Positions 3,991 to 35,609 of a stretch of 64,000 nucleotides of DNA are shown here, in pieces (the first letter of the stretch is position 1; each line of letters begins with the position of its first letter). A model generated the notes under the pieces. It was not told where the DNA came from. It saw nothing but the letters and a program-made list of their open reading frames with translations, and ran no database searches. The stretch comes from Sphyrna mokarran. Taxonomy: Eukaryota. Position numbers and translations under genes: made by a program. The stretch is from assembly GCA_024679065.1 (NCBI GenBank), contig JAGIQG010000025.1:19344001-19408000 (forward strand). Direction: 5' to 3'.

Positions 3991-4250
3991 TTTGAACTGC
4001 AGCACCGCGCCGACCAATGAAGAGGGCGGCGCTTAGGGAGGGGGGGTGATTAAACTCCCAAGGAGAGGGGCCAATGGAAGTTCAGCGTGACTTGGGGAAT
4101 CCGACTAATCTAAACAAAAGAAGGCAGAAGAGGTCACTGGTGAGCGATCGGGAGGGTGAGCTTAAGGGTTAAAGTCAGCCGGCACTTCCGAACCGGAAAC
4201 GCGTCATTGGCCCGGGGCCCGCTTAGCCTGTGTCCCAAAATGGCGCCTCT
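3960..4250. promoter_or_regulatory. Bidirectional CpG promoter RABEPK/PPP6C
   Basis: CCAAT at 4014-4018 and 4071-4075, ATTGG 4206-4210, paired ETS-like sites cacttccg 4183-4190 and ccggaaac 4193-4200, YY1-like caaaatggcg over the PPP6C ATG, X-box-like gttgctatgg 3960-3969, no TATA. Confidence 0.85.
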
Positions 4251-4314
4251 GGATCTGGATAAGTATGTGGAGATAGCTCGGCAGTGTAAATACCTCCCGG
4301 AAAATGACCTGAAG
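4240..4314 (+). CDS. PPP6C: Protein phosphatase 6 catalytic subunit, exon 1
   Basis: [25 protein letters not shown], donor AAG|gtaaca. Confidence 0.98.
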
Positions 4315-5139
4315 GTAACATCTTAACCTATCTCTCTAAACTCAATTCATTCTGTATGTTGTGCTAAGTCTCTCTGATGTCTCAGTCGGTGTGAAATTTA
4401 TCTGACGCAATGGAAACTGTCAGGACTACAGGTTTAGGCTGTATCTTTATGTTTTGGGGCCTTCAATCTTCTGTCTTAAATCCCTGCCTGCTTTGGGTTT
4501 TGATATTTATGTATAATGTGGGATAAGTGGAACCTCCCACCCCGTCTCAGGACTATTTACAATGACGCTGCTATCCCATTAGAATAAAAACATCACGAAT
4601 GCCGGCCGTACCACCACCCACCGCAGGAGGAGGTGTAACTGCATTTGACAAGTATAACTTGTCTGTCCAGAGTGGGACATATACAAGTACATAAAATTTT
4701 AAATTGTGTGGTTCGTTTCATTAAAGACAGCTTTCTTTCTCCGTTGCCTATTGGTTTTGGATGGAATTAATCACTTAACAAAGCTGAAAGATCCGCGATT
4801 TTCAGGAGTTTGTTCAGTCGAGAGATTCTGTCTTCAATTTAAGACTCTTTAATCAGATAGCTAATTCCAAGCTATTGTTTGTTTCAATTCGTTCAAAATA
4901 GATTGACTTCACTGCGTATAAAATGCTGTATTGTTCAGTTGTTTGTAACGGGGCTGGAAAGCTTTCAAATTAAGTTGTGGAAAGCTAACGTTCTTCAAAA
5001 ATGCTTAGCTCCTTTGCAACAATTTTTGAAACTCGAATAAGGTATTGGTTATTGTTTAAGTGAAAGAAGTAATTGTGGCATTTTAAAGCGTTTGATGAGG
5101 ACTACTTTATAAAAAACCAAGGTGTTTGGTGTCATCTAA

Positions 5140-5820
5140 CTTGGGTAGAGCAGTGGCTAACTAACAGAATAAGAGGGGCATTTTCATGATTGTAACTTGT
5201 AATAAGTGCTGCATGGGTCAGTGCTGGGACTATGGATTCATTACAATTGCATTCTAATGATTTGAATGTACTATTGCCATGTTTGCAAATGATAAGATAG
5301 GTGGAAAGACCAGTAGTGAGGATGACAGTCTACAGAGGAATATGTACAGGTTAGATGAGTGGGCAAAAATTGGCATATAACGTAGGAAAATGTGAAGTTA
5401 GGTATTTAAATAGGAAGAATAAAAGAGTTGAATATTTAAATGGCAAAAGCAGCCATATAGGAATTTGGTAGTCCTCATGCATAAATCACAAACTAGCACA
5501 CAAGTTCAGTAGGTAATAGGGAAGATAACTGGAATGTTAACTTCCTTTATTTAAAAGGAAATGAAGTAATAAGTACTAATATTGGAGGCAGTCCAGTGAA
5601 GGTTCGCTAGTTGATCCTGGAAATGGAGGGATTTTCTTAGGAGGAAACTAGGCTGGGCCTGTGCTCAATTTTGGAAGTTTCAGAGGTGATCAGAGACATC
5701 AGGGAACTTAATAGAATAGATTCTTCTGAGAGATAGTTTCCCCTTCTAGGAAAGTCTAGAACCAGAGGACATCGTCTCTGAGAAAGGCCTCACCTATTTA
5801 AGACATGAGGAAGAATTTCT
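5140..5820 (+). mobile_element. Old degenerate CR1 LINE fragment
   Basis: Remnants of RT motifs (FAND, acaggttagatgagtgggcaaaaat, aaatgtgaagtt). Confidence 0.7.
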
Positions 5821-6059
5821 GCTGTGACAGTGCAGAAGCAAGCCATTGGGCCCATCAAATCTGCACTAACAATACCACCCATGTCCTATTCTCATAACCC
5901 CACATATTTACTCTGTTAATCCCCCTGGCACTAAGGGTCAATTTAACATGACCAATCAAGCTGACCAATGGAGAGGCCATTGTACGGTAAGGTGGTGTTT
6001 AGGTCCTGAGCAGAAGGACCAGTGAGAATTTGGCTTCCGTGTGAAACTGAGCTATTCTC

Positions 6060-6945
6060 CAAAATGAATGGAATTATTAGCAAATGTATGTGGCACAGTT
6101 TCAAAACTTGCAGACACCACAGAACTTAAAAGTAGTGTTGTGAGCTATGTGGAGGAGAGTTAAACTTCAGGAGGACAGACAGGTTGGTGGAATGGATGGA
6201 ATTATGACAGATGAAATTAAATGCAGAAAAGTGTGAAATGATCCTCCCTGATGGGAGGAACTAGGACAGACAATATAAAGTAAAGGACACAATTTTAAGG
6301 TGGTTTTAGGAACGGGGGCTTTGGGGTATATGTGTGTAAATTTTGAATTTGGGATTGAGTAGAGGCTAAGGGAGTGGTGAATAAGGCATACAGGATCTTG
6401 ATTAGAAGGATAGAGTATAAAACATTGGAAGTTGTGTGTAAACCCTTATATACTAGTTCAACCTAAACTGGAATGTTATTTCCAATTCTGGGCACCATGC
6501 TTTAGAGAGGATGCAGATAAAATTTGGGAGGATAGTTCCAGGTGTAAAGGACTTCATTTATATGGATAGATTGAAGAACTTGTCCTCAGAGGAAAAGACA
6601 TTTGAGGAAACTTGGTGGAGATGTGAAAAATCATGAAGTTGACAGTTTCAATGGAGAGAAACTGATTTCTCTGTTGGAAAGGTTGCAAACCAAAGGATAT
6701 TGATATCAGGTGAATGACAAAAGCATCAAAGGCTACATGAGGAAAAACCTTTTTACATAGTGACTGGTTAGGATCTGTTGCTTTGCCTGTGTGATGGAGG
6801 CAGATTCATTCTTGGCTTTCAAAAGGGAATTGGATGGGCACCAGAAGGAAGAAAATGTGTGGGGCTATGGAGGAAGTCAGGGGAATGGGAGTAGTTTATG
6901 AACCCTGAACAGAATTGGCATGGACACCAATGGCCAAATAGCCTT
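6060..6945 (+). mobile_element. Old degenerate CR1 LINE 3' part
   Basis: KLAD/KCEM/QFWAP remnants and CR1-like 3' UTR. Confidence 0.7.
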
Positions 6946-8996
6946 TTGAATCCAAATATTGTTTTGTGCTTTTTTCATATTAATGTAAAGAATTGTGTGC
7001 AATTTGTATTTGTACTGTGCCTTTCATGTTCTAACAAGTCCCAAAATGCTTAACAAAAATGTAATCTGACAAAAAGGCGCTGGTCTTAATCGAATTCAAA
7101 CATCCCAAGTCTTCCCCCACTTCACACTGTGCAAGCAGAGACAAAAATCATCAATTGCCCTTTATGCAATCTTTTGAAAGTAATTTGAGCCCAATTTAGA
7201 GAAATCTGGAAATCACTGAACAGTCTTCATTCACCTATAATTCTCATCTTCGCACTTAAGTAGCATTTTGCCTCTAACTGGATGTGTCCTCTTTTTGAAA
7301 AGAACTTTGCATGTTCCAGAGTCGCCTGATAAATAACACCCCTGGAATGCTTCGGTATAGTCCAGATGATGGCTGTAATGAATATTTCTTTGCACATAAC
7401 CCTGTTGTTCACTGCAAGCTGTAAATGTGATTACAGCAACATTGTTTAACCACAAATGAATTCTAGCGAAAAGCATTTTGTTTACATTTCTACCATAGAA
7501 CTGTATGCACTTGAGTGTTTTTACTTAACTAATCACCAAAAGTAACATGAGATGGTCAGTGATCAAAAAAACACTTGTGCACATCTGTTTTTTCTGTTGC
7601 CAAACGAATGCACAAAGATTGAAGTACATCTATTATACAGTTGTGCACATTATACAGTGAATATTATTAAAATCAAATGACTTAGTTTCTATAATTCAGA
7701 AATGCAATTAATCACTTCTGCATAACAGTAATTCCTCACCTCAGAACAATTCTATTAAATCTGTGTTTTCTCATATCTTGATGTCCCTAGAATTAAACTG
7801 ACTCCTCCCATTTGGAACCAAACTAATGCTTTGTTTGGATTTAGTGCAACCTCCAGACTTGTGCTCCATGTCTTTAGTTTAAAGCTGGGGATCCTAGATG
7901 CTGTTGTTAATCAGCCCATCTACTTCCATTTGGGACCTGAATTTTGTGCTCCATGTTTCTCTTTTAAAGTCCAGGATTGCATACAGTGCTGGTGTCTTTC
8001 CGTTCTTGCCCCTATGTGTTCTGAAGAATTAATTCTGTTTCTCTCTACATCGGTGCAGCCAGGCCTGCTGAGTATTTCAGTACTTTGCCTTTTTTCAGAT
8101 TTCCAATATTTGCAATATTCTGTTTTTATCATAATTGTAATCTTATTACTGTTAGCCCAAAAAAAGCATCTATGTAATGATAGAAAAAAGTTTGTCTACG
8201 TGTGGGAATCTAAGTGAATAGAGAAAAAATAATGTTGTACATCCCACTGTATAGTTCAACTTCATCAATTAAAAACTTTTGTACTTCACAAAACTCAAGT
8301 TTCTTCAGTTTTAACCTGAAATTTGATACAGGCAAACATTTAGTACAACTTCTATTCATAATGTGGTCCACTTCCTTACTGCAGATTAGAAAATATCTCA
8401 TTTGCAATATTTGAAAGTTGCAATAATAGAAAGTAATATTAATTGAGTCATTAATTCACTTTTGCACCTTGTCCAACTGCTTCTGAGGATCAAAGCACTT
8501 TACGTGTTTTTCCTCTATCTGGTATTACTACTTTGTAACAGGAAACTAAGGTTGGCTATCTCAATTAAATATTTACTTATTCATTAGTCACTTTTTGTTT
8601 GCAATTCTGTTTAACACCAGGGAATACAAGTAAATTTACCATGTTAAGTGTTCACCTTGCAGTTCTGGTAACTGGTTACATTGCTGTGTAGAATAATTTT
8701 GTCATTGAAACTAATCAAACTGAAAGCAGGTGCTCACAGCTAATTAAATTTTATTTTTACTCTGCTTTGTGTTTACTGTTTTGTATCTTGATCGTGAGAA
8801 GTAATTTATACTACATGAGAAGGGTGCTGGTTTGGTTTGCCAGTGAAATTTACTTGGGAAAAGGCATTGCGATGGACAGTGCAGCAGGGATCAATTAGCT
8901 ACTAAGCTTTCTAAATTCAAACCAGGCAAGTTGACTTTGGTCAAAACCATGCCACGAGAAATGAACCAAGGATTCTATGCTTGGATGTAAAAGTCA

Positions 8997-9161
8997 TGAT
9001 GTAGAGATGCCAGCGTTGGACTGGGGTAAACTCAGTAAAGTCTGGCAACACCAATTTTAAATCCAACCGATTTATTTGATAGTAAATCTGCAAGCTTTTC
9101 GCCCTTTGTGGCCTTCGTCAGGCCAGGTTGGATTTAAAATTGGTGTTGCCAGACTTTACTG
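8997..9161 (-). mobile_element. Penelope-derived fold-back mini-element containing a hammerhead motif
   Basis: Homologous to the Penelope terminus at 43050-43180; perfect 36-bp inverted repeat 9033-9068/9126-9161; TSD ggatg(t/a)aaaagtca 8983-8996/9161-9174. Confidence 0.85.
9088..9126 (-). ncRNA. Minimal type I hammerhead ribozyme motif
   Basis: Minus strand ctggc-CTGACGA-ag-gcc acaaag ggc-GAAAa-gc-TT-gcag. Confidence 0.6.
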
Positions 9162-9446
9162 GATGAAAAAGTCAGTGCTGGGACATGTTCTTTACGTTTA
9201 CAAAGAACAGGGCTTTGTTTTAATAAACGTAGTTTCTAGCAGTATAAGTGAGCCACATTGCAAACTCAACTGATTTTAAATTGATTGTTGGCACAATTGG
9301 TATTGTTTAGTAAGTGTCATCAATTATGCAAGCACATTTAATATTAAATATTCCAGAGCAAGCATGAACTGATTTTGGTCAGTACTTTTCCATATTGCAT
9401 GTTTCCATGAGCCGTTGGCTATTGGGATGTGTGACTTGCACATCTT

Positions 9447-10069
9447 TGGTAAAAGACACCTCTGAGACTGTTAGCGTCAAACTACAATAAGTTTTATTTC
9501 AAAGCTTTTGGGAGAAACCTGGTCCTAACAGTGGTTTATCAGGCTTTTCATTGAACACAATTGGATATTTATACATCATTAGTCCCAGTATCAATCACGA
9601 CGCAAACTCCCGATTCCGGTTAGGACTGCAGGTCTTCCTACTTTGATCACGACGCAAATTCCCGATTCAGCCAGGACTCTGTCCATCTGGCAGCTGCAGT
9701 CACGATATAATGTTCGATCCGATCATGACCCACAATGCTTCCGGCCGCATCGGCATCTCCTTCCTTGAAGTTACTTGGGCGGCCGCGGCTGTCCCAGCAG
9801 GACTCTTCTTGTTAAAAAGCCGGTATCGCAACCTACCAGCTGCAGCTGTGTAACGATATTCACTTAGCACAAACAGGTAAGGTTCGCAATGTCTGCAAAA
9901 TAACATTCACATTTGACTATCTGTCAAAGTAAGGAAAACATGAATAAATAATTTATATTGATACTAGGAGCAGTATAAGCTTAACGAGATCAGCCATGAG
10001 GAAGGGTTATGTTTGTGATATATGCTAGGTATAAAATGCATTAAATTCATTAACCCGTTCCATACTTCA
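9447..10069 (-). mobile_element. Young solo LTR (ERV or LTR retrotransposon)
   Basis: TG...CA termini, ATCTT 5-bp TSD (9442-9446 and 10070-10074), minus-strand TATAAAT (9567-9573) and AATAAA (9493-9498), U3 direct repeats, CpG-rich. Confidence 0.85.
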
Positions 10070-10144
10070 ATCTTGCATCACGCTGGCACTGATTTATTTG
10101 TGAGGTAGGCAGGTTGTCTTTCTGTTTTGATGGCAACATTCTGT

Positions 10145-10740
10145 TTGTGGAGAATATCACTCGTGTTGGAACTGAATAGTACAGCATGAAATGGCAAGTT
10201 TCACGTTGTTCAAATGTTTGAGACGCCTAACCTTTCCAGGGTAATTTGAGGTATACTGGATGCTTTCCAAGAACAAAGGTGGCAGGCTTAAACCAATTAA
10301 GTTTACATGACACACAGCAAGCAGTGACCTGATCACAGGGTAACCATTTTCCTGCAGAATGGTTTTGTTGCTCTCTATTTCAACCTGTAAGGCACGAAAT
10401 ATAGGAATCTGAATGTATATATTAGCAATGAAGGTGGGCTTGCAGTAGACCTTAGTAGGGAATCCATTGGATTTCTCAACTTGCTTTGTCGAGGGAAGCG
10501 AACTCAGCTGACTGCTCCATGTCAAAGGTGAATTTCAACACAAGGTTGAACATTTAAGGTGTGTAAGGTCATTCTTGTGTGCAGCTGCAATTCAAATACA
10601 GCAAATGTATCATCTACTTTTTGGAAATGTACGAAGGGTTGGAGGTTGGGATTTATTCCATCAATGAAGATGTTAGTGAGAGATGAACCTGGCTGGGATC
10701 CCATGGCCTCATCACCTATTTAGTCATGCATGGTAGTTGA
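10145..10740 (-). mobile_element. Old Penelope-like RT fragment
   Basis: MGSQPGSSLTNIF...KVDDTFAVF and TKVYCKPTF resemble PLE RT motifs MGSPLGPxLANIF, RYVDD and VYRKPT. Confidence 0.7.
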
Positions 10741-11329
10741 GTTCATAAGTTCAATAAATATGTTTTACTTCACACATTTTTTCATTTGTTTACTTTTGCC
10801 TTGCCCAAAAGGTAGTGGCTTTGTTGAGGATTGATTCAGTAGGTGTTGGCAACCTTGTAAATCTTTTTGAGCAGTGTCAGTGTGACCACACCTAATTTTT
10901 CCTCACCAAGCATTATTGTGAATGATTTCTAGTAGCCGTTAGAGAATAGTAATCATGAACCTGAAGGAACTTAATTTGACTTCCTAATTTGGCTCTGCAA
11001 TTCTTTTTCAATGATTTTGTTTTATTTCCCTAGCTGAGCTCTGAAATTCAAAATAGATGAGGAATTGAATTTGGGATCCTTTCATTCTGTGACATTGCAA
11101 GGCATGTTGAGAAATGCCTTGCCTTCAATCATGTCTGCTTGCCATTAATAAGAGTTTCAAGTTCGTTTTTTGGACTTTTTTCTCTTTTTATTCTATTTCA
11201 CTTTGTCTGAAATTGTTAGAATGCTAAAGGGTTTAGTTGGGGAGAAGGAAGATTAATTGTCACTTACTAAATCATCTGATTTTTGGAATATTGACTCCAA
11301 TTCAAATCACCAGGAAAATATGTACAAAG

Positions 11330-11455
11330 AAAACCCAAGGTGGCATGAATGGATACTACCTGAATGTGGGCTGGCAATGAAGGCAGCAGAGAATAGAATT
11401 CAATGGAGAAAATTTGTTAATGGTATGGCCAATCTTTGGAATGAGGACTGATGAA
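11330..11455 (+). mobile_element. RTE-clade LINE 3' end fragment
   Basis: ORF end '...MKAAENRIQWRKFVNGMANLWNED*' resembles an RTE C-terminus. Confidence 0.5.
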
Positions 11456-12028
11456 AGGCATAAACATTCCAATGTTTGTATGCAAAATGTATTTTTTTTT
11501 TTTTTGAAGACTTCCCTAACTGTTCAGTTAAGGCAGTGACATTTGGTGAAAAATACTTTCCATTCAGTTTTATTTATGTTTATATTGCTTTCTGTAGTTT
11601 TGCATGCTACAATGTGATTGTTGGAGGTAGCTTGCAGGTGTAAATGTGGAGATTAGAAGAGTCAGTCCAAGTTACGGTCAATGAATGTCATGTTTGTAGT
11701 GCCAACAGAGGATTGTGAAAAGTGAGAAAAGTTTCTAAATGAACACGATTCTTTGTACATGTTTGGGAACCAATGTGAGACCACAGTTCACTCATCTGCC
11801 CTATTGTCAATCCTTCAGGAAATGCTGTTTGTTATTAATAGACAGAGTAACACTGTCAAGAATTATGCTATTCTGAAGAAAATCTTTATTGACTTTTGTA
11901 ACTTGGTTACCCCATGCCCAGCACAATGTTCACGGTGTTCTATTGAATGATTGCGAACCTGTATTGTTGGACTTTGCTAGAAATTTAGTGGTTTTAATTT
12001 GTGATCAAAATGTATTTTTATATTTTAG

Positions 12029-12124
12029 CGACTGTGTGACTATGTGTGTGACTTACTTTTGGAAGAGTCTAATGTTCAACCAGTGTCTACACCAGTAACT
12101 GTCTGTGGGGACATACATGGGCAG
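12029..12124 (+). CDS. PPP6C: PPP6C exon 2
   Basis: ttttag|[32 protein letters not shown]|gtgagt; contains GDIHG. Confidence 0.98.
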
Positions 12125-12948
12125 GTGAGTTTATTTTCTATTTTAAAGAACAGTTACTTCAGGCTAACAATTACCAATTTCAGAAATCTATAGCTAACTC
12201 CTCCTAACTAACGCCTAAAATTGCATTAGCTGCTAACTTTGGGACTGTAAGTGGATTATTCCTATCTCATGGCTGTCTAATTGGTGCAAATTAGTGTGAA
12301 TTTCTTAAGTTGGGTTGAGTTTTTTGTATGTAACTTTTTTCTCTAAACCTGTCTGTGCTGTTTTGTATTCATCAAGGTGGACATTTTGGTGCTTGGGAAT
12401 GGAACATTTTTCTATTTTTTGGGTATCATATTCACCTAAGCCATCAATGTGTCATGTTTGCCCTACAGTTATCATTTTGACTGAGGTTGTTGATTTGAGG
12501 GGTATTTTGTGTTTTATTACACATTTTCACTCCTCTCATCCCATCAGTCTCAAATAGATTTGAACATGGATACAAAATCCTAGTATATTACCTACCAAAC
12601 AATGAGTAATTCAAATGACATTCTCCATTTCCATATGACCAAATGATATTGCTCAATGTGGTTTTTTCCTGGCATCCTGACATAAATATCACTTGCAGCC
12701 AGTTGGGTTACTGCTATGAATCTCTAATTCTCTTATCCACATTTAAAAATTTACTTTGGAGGCTGAATTGTACAGAAATTCTGTATGTTGCATCACATGA
12801 AAGAAAACATTTTTAAGTTCAGTAATTTGGGTATAGGACAAGCGGGTTGAGGCTATTCAAATATCATGTTTCCTATACAGTGATTTTTGCATTAGATTTT
12901 ATGTTTGTAATGTACAAAATGTTCACTGGATTTTAAATTATTTTACAG

Positions 12949-13014
12949 TTCTATGACTTGGGTGAGCTGTTCAGGACTGGAGGTCCAGTTCCTGACACAA
13001 ATTATATTTTTATG
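12949..13014 (+). CDS. PPP6C: PPP6C exon 3
   Basis: ttacag|[22 protein letters not shown]|gtaagt. Confidence 0.98.
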
Positions 13015-13488
13015 GTAAGTAATTGTTTAAAACTATATACTATAAATTCTTTGAATTTTAAAAATATTTCTTTCATTAAAGTTCAGTTGTAAGTTTGAAA
13101 CCTGACTATCTGGTCTTGGCACTTAATATTGCTTTGATATCTCAAATTGACAGAAGTATTTTGTAAACCAATTTATGAAAATAAGAGGAATTTGGTACTA
13201 TTTATTAAGAATATTTTAGATGTGCACCTAAACCATTAAAAATGAATATAGGAACTATATTGTTAGGTTTAATACTTGAGGTTTGTATATTGATTGTAGA
13301 TTTACATAGATGCACAAGAAAGCTGCTTGCTAATACCACGTATAGCATTTAAAGATTGCAGGAATAGATTGGACTGAAAAGTAGCAATTTTTTCTAATGT
13401 TATATAAGCATAAATATTTTGTTTTGCATCATATTTAATTACATGTTTTTTTAAATTGTCTGTCATACTAACCTAATTTTGTTAACAG

Positions 13489-13630
13489 GGTGACTTTGTG
13501 GACAGAGGGTATTATAGTCTTGAAACTTTTACCTACCTCCTTGCATTGAAGGCAAAATGGCCTGATCGCATCACACTTCTCAGAGGAAATCATGAAAGCA
13601 GGCAAATCACTCAAGTCTACGGGTTCTATG
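13489..13630 (+). CDS. PPP6C: PPP6C exon 4
   Basis: aacag|[10 protein letters not shown]...[17 protein letters not shown]|gtaatt; GDFVDRG and GNHE motifs; TACTAAC branch point 13466-13472. Confidence 0.98.
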
Positions 13631-13752
13631 GTAATTTGAGTGGGTTTTAAGTTCTTTTGAAAACTAGCTTATCTGGGGGAAAATAAGGATTTCTTGATCA
13701 AATTCTAGTCTTTTGAGTGGTCAGAAAAACTAAACATAATTTGTTTTAACAG

Positions 13753-13832
13753 ATGAGTGCCAAACTAAGTATGGAAATGCTAATGCTTGGCGGTACTGTA
13801 CCAAAGTCTTCGACATGCTTACAGTAGCAGCT
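13753..13832 (+). CDS. PPP6C: PPP6C exon 5
   Basis: aacag|(D)[26 protein letters not shown]|gtaagt. Confidence 0.98.
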
Positions 13833-14384
13833 GTAAGTAAATATTTATGTTGAAAAGTTCTGTGAAGTATTTGGATGTATTCTACTAAAATTGGATTTTG
13901 AGCAGTTAACAGCCCCTATACCAAAGAATTGTTACAATTTGAGAACTTCATGGTAGTAAAAAGAAACTCGGTTTGGCAAGTGCAACCTCACTCCTTTAAT
14001 GATCTGGTCATAAAATATTCTCTCTACATGGGAGTAACTTGTGTTTAGGAGAGCAGTATCTATAGCCTGTGTTAAGGAGAAAATACCTTTTCAGTAAAAC
14101 TTAGAAGCCCCTCCAGTGGGCAGAAGATACTAGCTGGCTTCTGTAGATTCAACAAACACTGTTCTCACTGAGCACTAACCCCCATGAATGCATTTTCAAG
14201 GGTGAGTGATCAGAGTAGATGTTAAGTACGCACATTGAAAAAAATATCACCTGGTAACTGCAACACTTATTTGAGATTTTTGAGATCAAAGGACATAAGT
14301 TTTGATCAGAATACCATAATCTATATTAATCAACTTTAAAAATGTAGATGTGCAAAAATTGATCGTAATTCAAGTCTCCTGTAT

Positions 14385-15416
14385 CATAGAGTCAGAACCA
14401 TATAGCGCAGAAGAGAACATTTGACCCATCAAGTCCTCACCAACACATTGGAGACATCTGATCTCACATATAGCAGTACTTGATCCATAGCCCTGAATGT
14501 TATGATGTGCCAAGTGCTCATCCATATATCTTTTAAAGGATGTGAGGCAACCCATCTCTAACACCCTCCAAGGCAGCACATTCTAGAATCCTACCACCCT
14601 CTGAGTTTAAAAAAGTTTTCTTCACATCGCCCTAAACCTCCTGCCCCTCACCTTGAACCTATAGTGGTTCACACTGCTGCCTCATAGCACCAGGGATCCA
14701 GGTTCAGTTCCCGGCTTAGTTCACTGTTAATGCAATGTTTGTGTTCTCCCCACGTTTGCATGGGTTTCCTCTGGGTGCTCCAGCTTCCTCCCACAATCCA
14801 GAAGCTGTACTAATTAAGTGCATTGGCCGTGCTAAATTGCCCCTCCACAGATACCAGAGTGTAGTGATTAGGGACTTTCACAGTAACTTCATTGCAGTGT
14901 TAATGTAAACCTACTTGTGATAACAAACTTTGTCTCCTCTGACTGAACCTTCAACTAAGGGGAACAGTTGCTCCTTATCTATCTATCCATGTCTCTCATA
15001 AGCTTATACAACTCACTCAGGTCACCCCTCAGTCTTCCCTGCTCCAACAAAGATAATGTTGTGGTTGGTCTTGACAGCATGGATGGCATTGCATTGTGCT
15101 TGGGTGATGTTTGGGGCTGTCTTGAGTGTGGTTGATGAATCTGGTGTTAATGCACCTCCTGATGGCTTGGGCACACGTCCAGTTGAGGGCAATGGCCTTC
15201 CGGAGGAGTCCACTTTGACCCTTTCCTCTTTGGTTGCTGCACTGCAGTTCCCTCTGTCAGTTTGTCGTCAAAGATAACCCAAGTATATCCAATCTTCCTT
15301 TGTAACTTGATGCTGCCCGGGATGGAGCATTTCTGCAGAATCTCTACTGCATCCCCTCCAGTGCAAAAACATCCTTCCAATTAATATGGCATTCAACTGT
15401 ACACAGTACTCCTGCT
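14385..15416 (-). mobile_element. CR1 LINE 3' part, interrupted by a V-SINE (about 14663-14930) and a Penelope fragment (about 15053-15273)
   Basis: CR1 tail and 'FKRYMDEHL' on -; V core at 14740-14795; PLE motif NITQAQCNAIHAVKTNHNII. Confidence 0.7.
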
Positions 15417-17359
15417 GTGGTCTCTTCCTTGGACACAGGTGAGGTCCCAGAGGACTGGAGAATAGCTAATGTTGTACCGTTGTTTAAAAAGGGTAGTAGG
15501 GATAACCCTGGAAATTATAGGCCGGTGAGTTTGACGTCAGTGGTAGGGAAGCTGTTGGAGGGGATCCTTAGAGATAGGATGTATAGGCACTTAGAGCGTT
15601 GCGATCTGATTAGGGATACGCAGCATGGATTTGTTAAGGGGAGGTCGTGCCTTACAAATCTGGTAGAATTTTTTGAGGAGGTGACGAAAACGGTGGACGA
15701 AGGGCGAGCCGTTGATGTCGTCTATATGGATTTCAGTAAGGTGTTTGACAAAGTCCCTCATGGGAGGTTAGTTGAGAAGGTCAAGGCTCATGGGATACAA
15801 GGACAAGTAGCTAGATGGATAAGTAACTGGCTTGGTAATAGGAGACAGAGTAATAGTGGAAGGATGTTTCTCTAGCTGGAGGTCGGTCACTAGTGGTGTG
15901 CCGCAGGGCTCGGTACTGGGACCTCTTCTATTTGTAATATATATAAATGACTTGGAAGAGGGAGTAAGTGGAGTGATCAGCAAGTTTGCAGACGATACAA
16001 AGATGGCTGGACTTGCGGATAGTGAGGAGCATTGTCAGGCGATGCAGCAGGACATAGATAGGCTGGTAGCTTGGGCAGACAGATGGCAGATGGAATTCAA
16101 TCCTGATAAATGTGAGGTGATGCATTTCGGGAGAAAGAATGTAGGGGGGAGGTATATGATAAAGGGTAGACCTATTAAGAGTATAGAAACGCAGAGGGAC
16201 CTGGGGGTGCAGGTGAACAAGTCTCTGAAGGTGGCAGAGCAAGTGGAGAAGGTTGTGAAGAAAGCATACAGTATGCTAGCCTTTATAGGAAGGGGTATAG
16301 AGTACAAGAGCTGGCCTTTAATATTGCAGTTGTATAAAACGCTGGTTAGACCTCATTTGGAATACTGCGTCCAATTCTGGTCGCCTTACTACCGGAAGGA
16401 CGTGGAGACTCTGGAGAGAGTGCAGAGGAGGTTTACCAGGATGCTGCCTGGTATGGAAGGTCTGAGTTACATTAGGAGAGATTAGGCAAATTGGGAGTTT
16501 GAATTGTTTTCCTTAGAAATTGTTTTCCTTAGAAAGACGTAGACTTAGAGGAGATCTAATAGAGGTGTACAAGATTTTGAAGGGGATAGAGTAAACAGGG
16601 CTAAGCTTTTTCCTAGGATGGACTCAAATAGCACAAGGGGTCACGGGCTTAGGGTGAGGGGGGTAAGGTATTATTTGTATTCTAGGGGGAGTTGTTTCAC
16701 ACAGAGGGTGGTGGGGGTATGGAATGTGCTGCCAAGTAAAGTGGTGGAGGCAGGTACTCTGGAAATATTTAAGGAATACTTAGATGGGCACATGAACAGA
16801 ATGGGAATGGAGAGGTATAAAAAACTGATTTAAAATAGGGATCGTGAGCCTTGGGAGTCCCTGGGAAGTGTGTAAATAGATGATGATATTGATGTACTTG
16901 TTTTTATCCTACAGTTGCTTTGGTCCACCTTGTTGTCTAACGAGGGGCATACACGCAATGGGTCGTGAGAGGACTGCTCTTGGATCTTTTGAGAGTATCC
17001 TACTGCTTCACGTCGTTAGTGTATGCTTGACCTGCACCATCTGATGGGTAACACGACAGCTCAGTGACTATCGCTGTGCAGATACATGGATTTGGGCCTT
17101 TGTCTGTGGGAGTTTGCGCATTCTGCCTGTGCTTGCGTGGGTTTTCTCTGGGTGCTCCGGTTTCCTCCCACATCCCAAAGATGTGCTCTTGGGTTAATTG
17201 GCAAAACAAATTCTCCCTAAATTGTCTCAAATTTGGTTTTTAATCCATAGATCTATAAACATGGACAGGGATCGCGGGTAGAGGTGGGAACATTGGGGTG
17301 GTGGCGTGGGCTCGTTGGACCGAAGGGCCTGTTTCCTGTGCTGTTTTGTTCTTTGTTCT
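15417..17359 (+). mobile_element. Young 5'-truncated CR1 LINE (RT with few frameshifts) with an extended 3' UTR containing a V-SINE-derived segment
   Basis: ORFs 15417-15875, 15832-16485 and 16618-16833 (PEDWRIANV, NYRPVSLTS, GVPQGSVLGP, KFADD); the CR1-type tail appears only at 17310-17359. Confidence 0.9.
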
Positions 17360-17374
17360 TTATATTCCAAGTTT

Positions 17375-18115
17375 TTCAGGGTTAAATTCTGCCCATTTGA
17401 TCATTCCATCTATATCTCTATTAACCACCCAGCCAATCTTTCTGTCATCTGCAAACTTAGTAATCTTACCCCCCCCCTCCTGCCGCCACCTCCCCACATT
17501 ATCATCAATGCCCCTTATATAAATGACGATAAGGGGACCGACAATCCTTGCAGAATGCCACTGGCTTCTAGTCATTAAAGCAGTCTTCTATCATATTCTG
17601 TCTCCCATAACTGAGCCAATTTTGAATCCATTTTATCAAATTCCCTGTATCCTATTATGAAATTAACTTCTTTACAATTCCCCATGTGGAACTTTTGTTG
17701 AAGGCTTTGCTGAAGTTCATATAAACTACAGTGACTCATGTACACACTTAGTCACCACCTCAAATTCAATTAAGTTTTTTGAGTGTGCCTCCCCTTAAGA
17801 AGCCATGCTAACTATCGCTAATCAAGCTTTGCCCCTCCATATAGAGATAGATGCTCTCCTTTAGAAGCTTCTGTGATAGTTTCCCTACCACTGATGTGAG
17901 ATTCACTAGTCTTTCGTTCCCTGGTTTATCTCCTACAACTCTTCTTAAATAACAGAACCGTGTAAGCTGTTCTTCAGTCGTCTGGCACACCCATGACCAG
18001 AGAGGAATTGAAAATTTTGAGTCGGAGTCCCTGCAATTTCTCTTGCCTCCTAGAGTGCTTGGAGCACAATTCATCTAGACCTGGAGATTTATCTATTGTA
18101 AGGTTGCCAGCATCT
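17375..18115 (-). mobile_element. Continuation of the old minus-strand CR1
   Basis: KITKFADDRKIG and DKPGNERLVNLTSVVGKL on -. Confidence 0.75.
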
Positions 18116-18866
18116 CCAATACCTTGTCCTTCCTTATGTCAGTTTGCTTAGGAACCTCACTGCCTCAGTCAAAGAACAGTCCTTCAATTCCATACCATCA
18201 TCCTTATTCTTGAATGAAAATGGATTTGCTCTTTGCCTGGGTGCGCATGTGCAGTACTGGCCACTGTGCTGCTCCATTACCCAGAGGGTTAACTACAATT
18301 GGGTTCCTGATTGTAGTTATCCTCTATTTCTGAAATCTTCCCTGGTTCTCCTAAGGTCCTCAGTCTTACCATTGGCACATTCCCGATCATTCTTGGGTCT
18401 TTTGTGTTTTTGGGCCATTTCTCCACATTAAAGATTCTGTGTAAATGCATGTTGCTTTTGACATAAACTCTGGAGACTTAAAATACATGTGTTGTGTGAT
18501 TTTTGAAAATGCAGCTTTAGCATGGTTAAGTAAATGAATGCTGTTAAAATTGTAGGTTGAAGGGAAATGATACATCCCAAAAAAGGTGCTAATTCCAGTT
18601 CTGTATATGAATATGTATTTGTGCATGTGGGAACCAATTAAAATGTGAATTTGGCATCACAAAAGTCAGGGGTTGGGGAGGATTTGAAGCAGAAGATGTG
18701 GAACTCTGGGGAGTATGGGATCAGTAGGAATAGTTTTGGATTTCTTAGGTTTCCTTGTCTTTCAGTTTATTTAGTTTTAGAGTTAATATATGCCAGCAAT
18801 AATTTCTACTCAGTATTTTTATAGGGCATTTAATTATAAAAACAATTTATATTTTTGTAATATCAG

Positions 18867-19076
18867 TTGATAGATGAACAGATCTTGTGTGTGCATGGTG
18901 GACTTTCTCCTGATATCAAAACTCTCGATCAAATCCGAACCATTGAGCGTAACCAGGAAATCCCACACAAAGGAGCCTTCTGTGACCTCGTATGGTCTGA
19001 TCCTGAGGATGTCGATACTTGGGCCATCAGTCCTCGAGGAGCAGGTTGGCTCTTCGGAGCAAAAGTTACAAATGAG
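18867..19076 (+). CDS. PPP6C: PPP6C exon 6
   Basis: tatcag|[16 protein letters not shown]...[16 protein letters not shown]|gtaaat. Confidence 0.98.
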
Positions 19077-19254
19077 GTAAATTGTCAACTCTAGACTTCA
19101 AAAGAACTTGAATTTTGGGAGTTTGAGGGAAAACTTTTTTTTAAAAAGAAGTTTGTTAATTGTTATGCTTAATTTTGATAATCAGATTATTCTGATCAAA
19201 TCGTGGATTCATACTTAATCAGTTTTCCACATTTTTCTCTCCCATATATTTGCC

Positions 19255-19780
19255 ACAGAAATAAGTCATTCAGCCCAACCAAACTATGGTGGTATTTATG
19301 CTCCACTCGAGCCTTATCCCATCATTCCTCATCTAAATTTGGTGTCATAGTCTTCTGGTTTTTTTTCCTCCCACATATGCCTGTCCAGCTTCCCCTTAAA
19401 TATGTTTATGCTATTTGCTTCAACTATCTTGCTCTAGTAGCAAGTTCCACATTCTAATAGCTTTTAGGAAGTCAAGAGACACTCTTGTCCACTGTTGGAT
19501 TTCTTGGTGACAATCTTGTATCTCTAGTTATGCTGTTTCACATGAGTGGAATCATTCTCTAAACCCTCTATCAAACCTTTTCATTATTTTAAAGACTTCA
19601 ATTAGGTTGCCTGTCAGCATTATTTCAACAACGATCTAGTTTTAGATTTTTCTGGTATCATTTTGTCTGCACCCTCTCCACTGTTTCAAATCCTTTTAAT
19701 ATTATGATGACCAGAACTCTACACAGTAGTTCAAGTGTGGTCTAAACAAGATTTGATACACATTTAGCCTAACTTTTCTA
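19255..19780 (-). mobile_element. Old CR1 3' fragment in PPP6C intron 6
   Basis: Reverse-complement remnants of CR1 'RPHLNYCVEFWS' and 3' UTR. Confidence 0.6.
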
Positions 19781-20294
19781 TGAAGTGTTTTTATGACCTG
19801 GTTGTGTACAATATTAGGAGATAGGCCCATTGTCTGGAGAAAGTAATCTTGATTTGTATGACAGAAGTGTCAGGTATTAATAGATTTATCTCTAATAGAG
19901 ACATATTCAGGAGGACGGAGATTTATTTTTATTTTCTTTCCTCTGGTTTTATCATTTTTTTCCTGTCCTCAAACTTAGTATGCCAGAAATAAATTGAACT
20001 GAACTTTATTATTGCTCTGGCTGAGAGGTTGACTCAACACAAGCTGGAGATTAGACTTCATGGTCTTGGTATAATGGCTTTTTGTTTTTTTTGGAAAATG
20101 TTATGACTTTGCCTTTCCTCTCCTTCAAAATGAGTTGGTGCAATATGCACCATAAAGATGTTGATAGCGTTGCATGTTCAGAGTACAGTATAATTCAGAA
20201 ATGGAACACTAAGTGGCGCTCTGCTCCTCAACTTTGGTATTCAGCCTAGGCATTTCCTTCATGCAGTTTTTTAAAAATTCTTTTTGTTTTGTAG

Positions 20295-20543
20295 TTTGTT
20301 CACATCAACAACCTGAAACTAATCTGCCGAGCGCATCAGCTAGTTCACGAAGGATATAAATTCATGTTTGATGAGAAGTTGGTGACTGTATGGTCTGCTC
20401 CTAACTATTGTTACCGTTGTGGAAATATTGCATCAATCATGGTCTTCAACAACGTGAACTCAAGGGAGCCAAAATTATTTCGTGCGGTTCCAGATTCAGA
20501 GCGTGTAATTCCACCAAGAACAACAACACCTTATTTCCTTTAA
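20295..20543 (+). CDS. PPP6C: PPP6C exon 7 (last coding exon)
   Basis: ttgtag|[15 protein letters not shown]...[11 protein letters not shown]...RTTTPYFL*; total CDS 918 nt = 305 aa; RAHQ, SAPNY and C-terminal YFL motifs. Confidence 0.98.
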
Positions 20544-28705: not shown

Positions 28706-30782
28706 TTTAACTTTATGTACTCTATGAATGGCATGTTTTGTCTCACAATGTGTAAGAAACAATACTTTTCACTGTATCCCAATACATGTGACAATAATAA
28801 ATCAAATCCTCTTCCCTATCATCAGCTGGTCATTAACTAAGGCCTCTCTCTGTATGAACTATTTTTCATCTCTCTCTATGAACTATTTTTCATCTCTCTC
28901 TGTTTCGCTCTCAACCATTTTCAGTCTACTCCGTGATTGTTTACTGTGTGAGCTACTCTTTAAGGAGTTTCCTTGTTCAAAAAAAAGTGGCTAAAGCTAA
29001 TCACTCTAACTACAGGCCAGTCAATTTAACTTCAGTGGTGGCAACTTTCTAGAAACAATAATTCAGAACACAATTAATAGTCACATGGACAAATGCAGGT
29101 TAAATAAAAAGCAGTATGATTTTCTTTAGGGAAAAGTTCAACTAACTTGCTCAAGTTTTTGAAGGGATAACAAAAAGGTTGATGAAGGTGAAGCTATTAT
29201 TATAGTGTACATGGACTTCCACAAGGTGTTTGATAAAATGCCACACAACAGCCTTGTGAGAAAAGTTCCAGCTCATGAAATAAAAGGAACTGTAGCAATG
29301 TCAATATGGAATTGACTAAGTGATGAGAAACAAATAGGAGTTGGTAATAGATTTTATTTGGGCTGGAGGAGGTTTTATGGTGGTGTTCCCAAGAGTTCAG
29401 TATTGTAACTGTTTTTTTTTTATGTATATTAATGACATAGATTTTGATGCACAGGACACAATTTCAAAGTTTGCAGATAATTTGGAAGCATTGCGAACTG
29501 TGAGAATAACAGTGATGAACTCCAAAAGGGCAGACGTGTTGGTGGAATAGGTGAACAGATTGCAGATGAAGTTCAATTCAGAGAAACATGAAGTGATTAA
29601 TTTTGGTAGGAGAAGTGATATAAACTAAATGGGGCAACTCCCTAAAAGGTGTACAGGGAATGTTTATGTATCTCAAAACATAAGAAATAGAGGGAGGAGG
29701 CAACCTAGCCCCTCGAGCCTGTCTTGCCATTCAATACAATCTGATCTGGTAGTGGTTCAGTTCCACTTATCCACCTGGTCCCCATGACCCTTACTTCCCT
29801 TATTGATCAGAAATCTAACCATCTGTGACTTAAACATATTTAATGAGGTAGCCTCCGCTGCTTTAATGGGCAGAGAATTCCAAAGATTCACTACCCTCTG
29901 AGAGAGATTCCTCCTCAACTCTGTTCTATGTTGACTGCCCATTATTTTGAGACTGTGCCCTCTACTTGTTTCCTTTCTAAGTGGGAATAATCTCTCTGTC
30001 TCTACCCTGTGTAGCCCCTTCGTTATCTTATATATCTCAATAAGATGTCCCCTCAGCCTTCAAAACTCCAATGAGTACAGGCCTAATCTACTCAATCTCT
30101 TCTCATAAGCTAACCCCGTCATCTCTGATATCAACTTGGTGAACCTTCTCTGCACTTCCTCCCAGGCCAAAAAAATCATTTCGCAAATAAGGTAACCAAA
30201 ATTGCACACAGTACTCTAGCTGTGGCCTCACAAGTACCTTGTACGATTATAGCAAGACCTCCCTGCTTTTATACTCCATTCCCCTCGTGAGAAAGACCAA
30301 CATTCCATTTGCCTTCTTGATCATCTGCAAACTGAGCTTTTGTGATTCATGCACAAGGACCCCCAGGTCCAGCATGGTGTAATTTTTCACCATTTAAATA
30401 ATAGTCCATTTTACTATTATTCCTTCCAAAGTGGATAACCTCACACTTGCCAATGTTATACTCTGTCTGCCAGATCCTTGCCCGCTCACTTAGCCTATCC
30501 AAATCTCTCTGTAGACTTTCCGCATCCTCCACGCAATTCACTTTCCCACTCATCTTCGTGTCATCAGCAAACTTTGTTACCCTACACTTAGTTCCCTCCT
30601 CCAGATCGTCAACATATATGGTAAACAGTTGAGGCCCCAGCACCAATCCCTGCAGCACACCACTAGTCACCAACTGCCAACTGGAAAAGCATCCATTTAT
30701 TCCAACTCTCTGCTTCCTGTTAGATACAGTAAGAAGTCTGGCAACACCAGGTTAAAGTCCAATCAGTTTATTTGATAGTAAT

Positions 30783-30825
30783 CCCACAAGCTTTCGGAAA
30801 CGGTGTTCCTTTGTCAGGTGTGTGG
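30783..30825 (-). ncRNA. Hammerhead motif with core mutation (CTGACAA)
   Basis: Minus strand cac-CTGACAA-aggaacaccgtttcc-GAAA-gc-TT-gtggg; G8>A relative to the 34575 copy. Confidence 0.55.
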
Positions 30826-31224
30826 AAGGTTCTGATCAGAGAAGGGCATATAAAGTCACACACTGTTTACAGAATACTGATTAGAATGCAAGTCTTTACA
30901 ATTAACTTGCTATTCAAGTCTGAAAGATGCAGACAATGTGAATGGGGATAGCATTGGCATAGGTTACAGAGATGTGCACTGTCTCCAGACAGGACAGTAA
31001 GTGAGATTTTACAAGCCCTGGCAAGTCCTAGAGCTTACATATAGTGCGACATAAACCCAAGATCCCAGTTGAGGCCATCCTTATGTGTGTGGAACTTGGC
31101 TATCAGTCTCTGCTCAACGACTCTGCGCTGTCATGTGTTGTGAAGGCCGCCTTGGAGAACACTTACCCAAAGATCAGAGACCAAATGCCTGTAACCACTG
31201 AAATGGTCACATTTCACATTTGAA

Positions 31225-32563
31225 ATGGGCAAAGTATTGGAGAGAATTATTAGGGATAGGATTTATAGTTATTTAGAGAGAAATGAATTGATTGGGGATA
31301 GTCAGCATGGTTTTGTGAAGGGTAGGTCGTGCCTTACTAACCTTATAGAGTTTTTTGAAAAAGTGACCAAAGAGGTGGATGGGGGTAAGGCGGTTGATGT
31401 GGTATATATGGACTTTAGTAAGGCGTTCGATAAGGTGGCCCATGGAAGGCTTCTGCAGAAAATGCAGATGTATGGGATAGAGGGTGATTTAGCTAATTGG
31501 ATTAGGAATTGGCTAGCAGATAGAAGACAGAGGGTGGTGGTTGATGGGAGATATTCATCGTGGAGTTCGGTTACAAGTGGTGTACCTCAGGGGTCTGTTT
31601 TGGGGCCCCTGCTGTTTGTAATTTTTATAAATGATCTGGATGAGGGTATTGAAGGATGGATTAGTAAATTTGCAGATGACACTAAAGTCGGTGGAGTGGT
31701 AGATAGTGAAGAGGGGTGTTATAGTTTGCAGAGAGACTTGGACAAGTTGCAGAGCTGGGCCGAGAGGTGGCAAATGGAGTTTAATGTGGAAAAGTGTGAG
31801 GTAATTCACTTTGGCAGGAATAACAAATGTGTAGAGTATAGGGCTAATGGTAGGATTCTTAATAGTGTTGATGAACAGAGGGATCTTGGTGTATATGTGC
31901 ATAGATCCCTGAAAGTAGGCAGTCAAGTCGATAAGGTTGTTAAGAAGGCATATGGAGTCTTAGCTTTTATTGGTAGGGGGATTGAATTTCGGAGCCGCAA
32001 CGTCATGTTGCAACTGTACAAAACTCTAGTGCGGCCGCACTTGGAGTATTGTGTGCAGTTCTGGTCCCCACATTATAAGAAAGATGTGGAGGCATTGGAG
32101 AGGGTACAGAGGAGGTTTACCAGGATGTTGCCTGGTATGGAGGGCAGGTCTTATGAAGAGAGGCTGAGGGATTTGAGGTTGTTTTCGTTAGAAAGAAGGC
32201 GGCTAAGAGGAGACCTTATTGAAACATATAAGATGATTAGAGGTTTAGATAGGGTGGACAGTGATAGCCTTTTTCCTAGGATGGAGAAAGCTAGCACGAG
32301 GGGACATAGTTTTAAGTTGAGGTGTGGTAGTTATAGGATGGATATCAGAGGTAGGTTCTTTACCCAAAGGTTGGTTAAAGTATGGAATGCCCTGCCTGCA
32401 GCACTTGTAGATGCGCCAAGTTTGGTGGCGTTTAAGAGGTTAGTAGATAAGTTTATGGACGAAAAGGGAATGGTTTAGTTTGGAGGGTCATGGCTTTTTC
32501 CTAATTGGTCGGCGCAACATCGAAGGCCGAAGGGCCTGTTCTGCGCTGTAATGTTCAATGTTC
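31225..32563 (+). mobile_element. Very young 5'-truncated CR1 LINE with an uninterrupted 417-aa RT C-terminal ORF
   Basis: ORF 31225-32478 without stops or frameshifts (QHGF, SCLTNL, GVPQGSVLGP, KFADD); tail aggccgaagggcctgttctgcgctgta(atgttca)(atgttc). Confidence 0.95.
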
Positions 32564-34574
32564 GCCAACAGGAAGGGAATGGTCTTGCCTGGTGATTGTT
32601 GAGTGACATTCATTCATCCGTTGTCGTAGTGTCTGCCTGGTCTCTCCAATGTACCATGCTTTGCGATATCCTTTCCTGCAGCGTATTTGGTAAACAAGTT
32701 GGCCGAGTTGCAAGAGTATGTGCCATGTACCTAGTGGATGGTGTTCTCACGTGAGATGATGTCATCCACGTCGATAATCTGGCATGTCTTGCAGAGGTTG
32801 CTGTGGCAAGGTTGTGTGGTGTTGTGGTCACTGTTCTCCTGAAGGCTGGGTAGTTTGCTGCGAACAACAGTGTGTTTGAGGTTGTGTGGTTGTTTGATGG
32901 CAAGAAGTGGGGGTGTGGGGATGACCCTGGCGAGATGTTCGTCTTCATCAATGGCGTGTTGAAGACTCTGGAGAAGATGTCGTAGCTTCACCACTCCAGA
33001 GAAGATGTCGTAGCTTCACCGCTCCGGAGAAGTACTGGACGACGAAGAGTAGTCTGTCCACTGTGTCCCACAGTGCAGAGGTCAGTGTGATTTTTCTCTG
33101 TGGCGCATCGAAACTGTAAAATGATGAGTCGAGCGCCATATCCTGTTCTTGTGAGAGCATCTTTCAGCATCTGGAGGTGTCTGTTGTAATCCTCCTCGTC
33201 TGAGCAGATCCTGTGTGTACGGAACGCTTGTCCATAGGGGATGGCTCCTTTAACATGTTTAGGGTGGAAGCTGGACAAGTGGAACATTGTGAGGTTATCT
33301 GTGGGCTTGTGATACAGTGAGATGATGAAGTGACTGTGCTTGATGAAGATGTATGTGTCGAAGAATGTCACCAATTCCAGAGAATAGTCCATGGTGAGTC
33401 TGATGGTGGGATGGAACTTGTTGGCGTCATTATATAGTTATTTCAGTGATTGTTCATCAATCAAGGATGGTCATTTCAGCACCTCATTGTACCGCAAGCC
33501 CACAAATAACATCACAATGCTCCATTTCTCCAGCTTCCACCCTAAACACATTAAAGAAGCCATCCCTTATGGACAAGCCCTCCATATACACAGGATCTGC
33601 TCAGATGAGGAGGATCGTGACAGACATCTCCAGACGCTGAAAGATGCCCTCATAAGAACAGGATATGCGCTAAACTCATTGATCGACAGTTCCAACGCGC
33701 CACAGTGAAAAATCGCACCAACTTCCTCAGAAGACAAACACAGAACACAGTGGACTGACAGATACCCTTCATTGTCCAATTCTTCCCCAGAGCAGAGAAG
33801 CTATGACATCTTCTCCGGAGTATTGAACACTTCATTAATGAAGATGAGCATCTCACCAGAGCTATCCCCACACCCTACTTCGTGCCTTCAAACAACTACA
33901 CAACCTCAAACAGACTGTTGTTTGCAGCAAACTACCCAGCCTTCAGGAGAACAGTGACCACAACACCACACAATCCAGACACAGCAACCTCTGCAAGACA
34001 TGCCGGATTATTAACATGGATGACATCATCTCACGTGAGAACACCATCCACCAGGTACACGGCACATACTCTTGCAACTCGGCCAACATTGTCTACCTGA
34101 TACGTTGCAGGAAAGGATGTCCCAAAGCATGATACATTGGAGAGACCATGCAGACGCTATGACAATGGATGAATGAACATCGCTTCCTGTTGGGGAACAC
34201 TTCAGTGGTCATGGGCAGTTGGCCTCTGGCCTTCGGTTAAGCGTTCTCCAAGGCGGTCTTTACGACGCATGGCACAGAATCGTTGAGCAGAGACTGATAG
34301 CCAAGTTCCACACACATGAGGATGGCCTCAACCAGAATCTTGGGTTCATTTTGCACTATCTGTAACCCCCATGACTTGCTTGGGCTTGTAAAATCTCAGT
34401 TACTGTCCTGTCTGGAGACAATACACATCTCTGTAACCTATGCTAATGCTGTCTCCACTCACATTGTCTATATCTTTAAGACTTGAATAGCAAGTTAGCT
34501 GTGAAGACTTGCATTCTAATCAGTATTTTGTAAACTGTGTGTGACTTTATATGCCCATCTTTGATCAGAACCCT

Positions 34575-34617
34575 CCACACACCTGACGAAGGAACACCAT
34601 TTCCGAAAGCTTGTGGG
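34575..34617 (+). ncRNA. Minimal type I hammerhead ribozyme in the Penelope pLTR
   Basis: cac-CTGACGA-a-GGAA caccat TTCC-GAAA-gc-TT-gtg; stem I CAC/GTG, stem II GGAA/TTCC, palindromic AAGCTT stem III. Confidence 0.75.
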
Positions 34618-35609
34618 ATTACTATCAAATAAACTGGTTGGACTTTAACTTATTACTGTGTTTACCACAGTCCAAAGCAGCATCTCTACATCATGACTGC
34701 ATCCTGTTAGATAGCCAATCCTCAATCCATGCTAACACTTTACCCCCAACTCTATGTACCTTAATCTTTTGCAGCAACCTTTTGTGAGGCACCTTATCCA
34801 ACACCTTCTGGAAGCCAAGGTGTTGGATAAAAACACCACATCTATTGGTTCCCCTCTGTCAACTGCACTCGTTACATCTTCATAAAAATCTAGTAAATTT
34901 GTCAAACATGACTGTAAGTCAGTTCATATGACAGGACAGGTTGAGAGAGTGATTAATAAAGCATGCAGTATAATCGACACAGGGGCACATAGAGTATAAA
35001 AGCAAGGAGGATTTATTTGACCTTGTGTAATTCACTAGTTTGGCCTCAGCATTGTATCCAATTCGGGGGACAATACTTTCGGAAGGATGTGAAGGTATTA
35101 GAGAAGGGGCAGAAAAGATTCATGAGAATTCCAGCAATGAGGAAATTCAGACATGAAAATAGACGGGAAAGTAAGAACTGTTTTCCATGGAGAAAAGTAG
35201 GTTGAGAGGATATCTAATAGAGGTGTTCAAAATCATGAGAGATCTGGTCAGGGTAGATGGAGAGAAACTGTTCCTACTCGTAAAAGGATCAAGATGAAAA
35301 AACACAGATTTAAAGTAATTAGTGATGTAAATAAAAACTTGTTCACACAATGGACGGTTGGAGTGATGATGAAGGCAGCTTCAATTGAAACATTCAAAAA
35401 GGAATTAGACTGTTATCTGAAAAGGAAGAATGTGCAGGATAATGAAGCGAAAGCTGAGAAATGGAACTAAGTGAGTTGGTCAATCAGAGAACTAGTGCTG
35501 ACATGATAGGTCTTCCTTCTATGCTAGAACAATTCTGTAATTCCAAATAAAGTTCAAAATACTCCCCCTTCTCTTACAAAGGAAATTAACATGCATATAA
35601 AGAAATTAA

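Follow-up and report, generated by a model that had tools for sequence, protein, structure and literature searches.

Truncated copies of EN+ Penelope-like elements (PLEs) are the closest described relatives of the locus reported here. As characterized in PMC8557442, for Pen2a_Av (PMC3846280) and for Penelope of D. virilis (PMC2377424), such copies carry a head-to-head inverted 3' end, a tail of 30-40 nt on one side only, TSDs of variable length and a minimal hammerhead ribozyme in the pLTR, and the parent families encode a C-terminal GIY-YIG domain. PMC8557442 describes an inverted 5'-truncated copy with a 30-40-bp tail at one end, PMC3846280 gives inverted pLTRs with TSDs of 8-10 bp and a tail of 31 bp, and what PMC2377424 and PMC8969392 report agrees with this layout of inverted pLTRs and a one-sided tail. 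The minimal hammerheads of metazoan PLEs, as presented in PMC4209133, have a CUGANGA core, an extra nucleotide after position 9, a G10.1-C11.1 pair and a tiny palindromic helix III; they occur as pairs, with 100-700 bp between motifs on opposite strands, and also as thousands of solitary motifs that derive from truncated copies.

Two further systems are relevant. PAc, a Poseidon of Anolis carolinensis, is an autonomous tandem element that, according to PMC11167929, nicks both target strands ∼ 13-15 nt apart and extends both, initiates reverse transcription within the RNA, at two positions that correspond to the ends of the tail and lie 111-118 nt into an ORF starting at helix II, and copies uncleaved RNA. 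It needs RNA to +172, a downstream segment, and is reported as the only PLE tested in vitro; the available text of the same paper does not describe the formation of an inverted arm for PAc. The non-LTR retrozymes (PMC7229834; bioRxiv 10.64898/2026.07.22.740005) are described as small, non-coding, hammerhead-bearing elements related to PLE pLTRs, arranged head to tail in tandem, every unit having its own complete type I hammerhead, and expressed as circular RNA.

We analysed a 165-bp hairpin in a 64-kb stretch of Sphyrna mokarran DNA (the window). It differs from the EN+ PLE copies described in the papers above in size only, being 165 bp long with no ORF or direct pLTR left, and its likeness to Penelope and Poseidon is one of layout. 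That layout is the published PLE norm, and the hairpin is a minimal inverted PLE insertion of a known kind. It is small, non-coding, hammerhead-bearing and related to PLE pLTRs, as the retrozymes are, but it is single and inverted and carries a damaged minimal motif. Unlike PAc, it is not an autonomous tandem element.

The hairpin in intron 1 of PPP6C

The insert lies in intron 1 of PPP6C, with the strand of its ribozyme antisense to the gene. PP6 catalytic subunits of vertebrates match the last exon of PPP6C (20295-20537) at 96% identity.

4240-20540, plus strand: PPP6C; at least six coding exons located, at ∼ 4240, 12029, 12949, 13489, 18870 and 20295
4240-4314, plus strand: PPP6C coding exon 1; exon 2 starts at ∼ 12029
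8982-8996, plus strand: left TSD copy, 15 nt, from the TSD comparison
8997-9161: the insert, 165 bp, a PLE 3' end plus an inverted arm
8997-9032, minus strand: PLE 3' tail, 36 nt; it matches the tail of the coding copy at 43 kb at 34 of 36 aligned bases, with an additional 5-nt gap
9033-9068, minus strand: pLTR stem arm of the tail-bearing copy; against 43103-43139, 34 matches, 2 substitutions and 1 gap
9069-9085, minus strand: pLTR spacer from ribozyme to arm; 9069-9084 identical to the 43-kb copy at 16/16 positions
9086-9125, minus strand: degenerate minimal type I hammerhead, its anatomy compared with that described in PMC4209133
9126-9161, plus strand: second copy of the pLTR end, inverted and without the tail; it reaches outward to the pLTR/tail border
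9160-9174, plus strand: right TSD copy; it differs from the left copy at 1 position, and its first 2 nt also belong to the arm end

The arms (9033-9068 and 9126-9161) are complementary at 36 of 36 positions with 57 nt between them, and the 36-nt tail is present on one arm only, both as the initial annotation had described. None of 200 shuffles of the insert folded as stably (z = -12.3). The TSD had been given as 14 bp with one mismatch; the duplication is real and the single mismatch stands, but its length is 15 nt. As a control, none of 3000 random position pairs matched over 15 nt or more with at most one mismatch, the longest match being 13 nt. The right TSD copy overlaps the end of the arm by 2 nt, and the last 5 nt of the left copy recur where another copy of the element ends (34694-34698). 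The borders of the element are therefore uncertain by 2 and 5 nt; the 5 nt are a possible priming microhomology.

The PLE terminus occurs elsewhere in the window at 43051-43181, 34582-34698, 30727-30794 and 36520-36725, and the first of these belongs to the closest sister copy.

41975-43181, plus strand: PLE copy most closely related to the insert; truncated at its 5' end, lacking an inverted arm and flanked by a 10-nt TSD
41921-42832, plus strand: GIY-YIG ORF remnant in this 43-kb copy (GIY-YIG domain, E = 1.3e-4)

Downstream of the ribozyme, 84 of 88 aligned bases of the insert are identical to 43087-43180, and the ribozyme region is identical to that of the 43-kb copy at 30 of 38 positions, with three gap columns. 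The best matches to ORF 41921-42832, among 15 listed, are RT-bearing (PF00078) elasmobranch proteins annotated from Heptranchias and Scyliorhinus, with 76-78% identity. Because of its identity to this copy, which lies behind a GIY-YIG ORF, we read the insert as a PLE 3' end: judged by sequence, it is the last 129 nt of a PLE (hammerhead, pLTR end and tail) joined to 36 nt of the pLTR end copied in inverted orientation. It is homologous to the 3' pLTR of an element with RT plus a GIY-YIG domain at the C terminus, and it has the head-to-head inverted 3'-end copy, the one-sided tail of 30-40 nt and the TSD of variable length that mark EN+ PLE copies. The Penelope pLTR and tail identity that had been proposed is borne out, since coding PLE copies elsewhere in the window are homologous to the insert. 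Between the outer end of the tail and the beginning of helix II there are 117-122 nt, compared with 111-118 nt for the tail end in the account of PAc, and, like PAc insertions there, the insert would have been copied from uncleaved RNA (PMC11167929).

A short insert with inverted repeats and a flanking TSD might also be a MITE, that is, a non-autonomous DNA transposon with terminal inverted repeats. However, the repeats are not terminal, with the 36-nt tail between arm and TSD, the entire insert is homologous to the 3' end of a retrotransposon, and the TSDs of the PLE insertions in the window vary in length (10, 15 and 17 nt). The homology to PLE termini refutes the MITE reading, whose probability we consider negligible.

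Both arms share a 2-nt deletion that is missing from the other copies in the window. They must therefore come from the same template or locus, which is compatible with every model of their origin. The identity of the arms (36/36) does not differ significantly from that of the TSD copies with their 1/15 mismatch (Fisher p = 0.29), and the 95% upper bound for arm divergence is 8%. Perfect arms beside a mismatched TSD and at least three ribozyme lesions count against the reading as a one-off truncated insertion set out below, and gene conversion or a ready-made hairpin is a possible source of the arms.

The hammerhead remnant

The initial annotation had called the minus-strand hammerhead almost intact. 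Its parts are as follows, all on the minus strand.

9125-9122: 5' strand of helix I, cut by the junction
9121-9115: CUGANGA core, followed by an extra A at 9114
9113-9101: helix II
9100-9092: GAAA box with one extra A
between 9092 and 9091: presumptive cleavage site; 9091-9086 is the 3' strand of helix I

That description holds for the CUGANGA core, the extra nucleotide and the G10.1-C11.1 pair, all of which are kept together with the small palindromic helix III, as in the motifs of PMC4209133. It fails for the remainder. Helix I has only two contiguous pairs beside the core instead of 4-5 bp, because its 5' strand is cut by the junction; helix II is interrupted by a G.G mismatch at pair 2; the GAAA box contains its extra A; and the motif has no partner in cis, in all of which it departs from the hammerheads described in that paper. 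No perfect motif could be recovered by one or two single-base removals, and three removals gave two solutions. Every base by which the ribozyme departs from a perfect motif lies in a homopolymer run (9123-9124, 9112-9114 and 9096-9099), and each of the three gap columns in the alignment to the 43-kb copy is likewise one surplus base within a run. On the minus strand, 9096-9124 holds a cluster of three to four such surplus bases. They could stem from RT slippage in structured RNA, from a different source subfamily or from an assembly error.

In the predicted fold the core is sequestered and both helix-closing pairs have a probability of 0.0. Forcing the active fold costs ∼ 10 kcal/mol, compared with 2.8-3.5 kcal/mol in three other copies, a comparison in which the helix I pair of the 43-kb copy could not be forced. 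These predictions suggest that the ribozyme is likely inactive. However, the PAc hammerhead is reported to cleave only with protein (PMC11167929), and for this reason misfolding in silico is no proof of inactivity. The best-preserved minimal hammerhead in the window is at 34583-34622 (plus strand), with an intact core, a 4-bp helix II and a 3-bp helix I, and it is a better candidate for a cleavage assay.

Rfam gave no match at E <= 1 over the whole window. On 8950-9200 it gave seven matches below the gathering score, two of them weak and the others to generic miRNA-hairpin models, and no hammerhead family was among them; the hammerhead call consequently rests on motif anatomy and on homology to the sister copies. 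The likeness to miRNA-precursor models raises another reading, in which the hairpin has been exapted by the host as an intronic source of miRNA or siRNA, or as a splicing or editing element, with its arms under selection. PPP6C intron 1 is transcribed, and the hairpin is also stable on the host strand (z = -10.7). Nevertheless, a score of 53 bits against a gathering score of 90 reflects generic hairpin shape, on which ground we rejected the miRNA-model matches, and perfect arms are expected of a young insertion within the divergence bound given above. We regard exaptation as very improbable. Eulor and UCON hairpins may be remnants of PLEs, a proposal weakly supported by the listing of UCON13 under Penelope (PMC5753468).

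Inverted PLE insertions in the window

Four PLE insertions were found, together making up ∼ 6.6% of the 64 kb. A profile built from six segments of the window gave seven matches at E < 1e-5 among 10 listed, six of which match by construction; it revealed no further copies in the window, all seven matches being inside the four known insertions. Besides the hairpin and the 43-kb copy these are:

30727-34696: large inverted PLE insertion; tail-less left arm, tail on the right arm, 17-nt TSD with 1 mismatch
36520-36725: small, older PLE palindrome of 206 bp; two head-to-head hammerhead remnants, arms ∼ 85% identical where aligned

An inverted tail-less arm is present in three of the four (the hairpin, 30727-34696 and 36520-36725); the fourth, 41975-43181, is simply truncated at its 5' end. 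To within 1 nt, one motif marks the end of every tail-less arm (the ends at 30727 and 36725 included), but no two of the three insertions have the same junction; they measure 165 bp, 206 bp and ∼ 4 kb, the last including a nested LINE. This RT-encoding LINE, which we take to be a CR1, interrupts the left arm of 30727-34696 at ∼ 31209-32558 (427-aa RT ORF at 31195-32478). The tail-less arm of the same insertion reaches ∼ 110 nt further 5' and into the ORF than its tail-bearing counterpart; neither arm can therefore be a copy of the other. The palindrome at 36520-36725 has no clear TSD, the best candidate being 8 nt in T-rich sequence, and both its junction and its subfamily differ from those of the hairpin. 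In both small inserts the turn falls within ∼ 10 nt upstream of the hammerhead core, which suggests a stop or 5'-end hotspot at helix I. We consider the hairpin very probably to be a one-off truncated inverted PLE insertion and a dead copy.

The initial annotation had offered a self-propagating element, retrozyme-like but resembling a MITE, as one of two explanations. Such a non-coding family would consist of a fixed palindrome of PLE ends with a vestigial hammerhead, moved as a unit in trans by PLE protein, and would be distinct from the tandem retrozymes. Perfect arms, a clean TSD and a private deletion common to both arms speak for it; non-autonomous PLE derivatives exist, as the Chlamys derivatives described in PMC8557442 illustrate, and non-LTR retrozymes are reported from genomes that include one chondrichthyan (bioRxiv 10.64898/2026.07.22.740005). 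Against it, the 20-mer spanning the junction (9116-9135) occurs once in the 64-kb window at up to three mismatches, and the hairpin shares neither junction nor subfamily with the second small palindrome. The locus has a single damaged ribozyme and no tandem array, whereas retrozymes consist of head-to-tail units each with a complete hammerhead. The insert also preserves bases from either side of the cleavage site. Its end coincides with the RT start site and, if PAc is a guide, it would lack the ∼ 55 nt beyond it that PAc needs, so that by this analogy the binding segment is missing; the pLTR end, as modelled, would moreover be locked in a 36-bp duplex. The retrozyme-like or MITE-like proposal thus finds no support here, and we judge a self-amplifying family improbable. 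The search covered 64 kb, and a family with this fixed junction may exist elsewhere in the genome. A comparison with prokaryotic genome contigs gave no match to the junction and is uninformative for an animal repeat. No self-amplifying PLE hairpin family appeared in the titles and abstract openings of the literature searched, which is weak evidence of absence.

Other features of the window were noted in passing. A separate short perfect inverted repeat with a 14-nt seed lies at 34794-34830, ∼ 100 nt to the right of the 30727-34696 insertion. Related LINE remnants with RT-like ORFs, presumably CR1-like, are present at 15100-16700, 29660-30720, 41040-41300 and 54500-57070. Degenerate RT-like ORFs at 61833-62881 (plus strand) give a weak PF00078 match (E = 6e-4) and resemble the pol remnant of an LTR retrotransposon. 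The segment 37600-38200 is CpG-rich and promoter-like, with G/C tracts and a 12-nt tandem repeat.

Formation of the insert and its significance

By analogy with the biochemistry of PAc and Poseidon, we suggest that a GIY-YIG/RT protein would have nicked both strands of the target ∼ 13-15 nt apart, with reverse transcription starting at either of the RNA sites that bracket the tail. The cDNA begun at the outer site, which includes the tail, would have run for ∼ 130 nt and stopped in helix I of the hammerhead, whereas the cDNA begun at the inner site, without the tail, would have stopped after 36 nt. Joining and filling in of the two cDNA ends would then have given the hairpin and its TSD, leaving a copy with no further mobility of its own and a ribozyme that would not cleave. 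The copy includes sequence from both sides of the cleavage site, which means that the ribozyme had not cut the template or that the template had been re-ligated. A fixed inner RT start site would also account for the shared end point of the tail-less arms.

We are about evenly divided on whether two separately primed cDNAs were involved. The other explanation in the initial annotation, an extreme fold-back truncation, survives in that the insert is a truncation with an inverted arm, as homology and two insertions of the same layout indicate; simple fold-back, however, is neither the sole mechanism nor probably the best one. A rival account shares the dead truncated PLE end and parts from the two-cDNA account on mechanism only. 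Following a proposal of Arkhipova and colleagues, the inverted arm would have arisen by self-priming, or fold-back, of one nucleic acid, and an endonuclease would have resolved the tail away from one end. In PMC3846280, palindromes at inverted junctions are the basis for inferring self-priming, and PMC8557442 attributes the tail to EN-mediated resolution. At the present locus, four bases of the junction lengthen a small hairpin with helix II, a 6-nt palindrome is found at the centre of the 36-kb palindrome, and the tail-bearing arm is the longer one in both small inserts, as fold-back predicts. The large insertion at 30727-34696 behaves differently. There the arm that reaches further inward is the tail-less one, which plain target-primed fold-back cannot yield, and PAc, in the account of PMC11167929, extends both nicked strands and has two start sites that match the tail ends, which also counts against fold-back. 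Arms of which neither contains the other favour two separately primed cDNAs over simple fold-back, although the asymmetry of 30727-34696 could come from later deletion. Taken alone, the 165-bp insert cannot separate double priming from self-priming followed by trimming. We consider the self-priming account a serious possibility, somewhat less probable than double priming. The titles and abstract openings of the literature searched held no report of twin priming in PLEs, again weak evidence of absence.

Whichever way the arm was made, we think it highly probable, only marginally less so than the one-off origin of the copy, that a single abortive PLE insertion explains the locus as a whole, comprising a PLE 3' end with a 36-bp inverted copy that is likely dead. 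The hairpin is most likely an ordinary dead by-product of PLE insertion.

As one of four PLE insertions in the window, the locus itself carries little weight. Inserts of this type mimic MITEs or miRNA hairpins and are therefore at risk of being mis-annotated. If its junction did prove to be amplified as a family, the hairpin would represent a new form of non-autonomous retroelement. The formation of inverted PLE structures is named as an open question in PMC8557442. Tiny PLE inserts with intact TSDs are natural records of how these structures form, and a genome-wide census of PLE inverted junctions could test double priming against self-priming directly.
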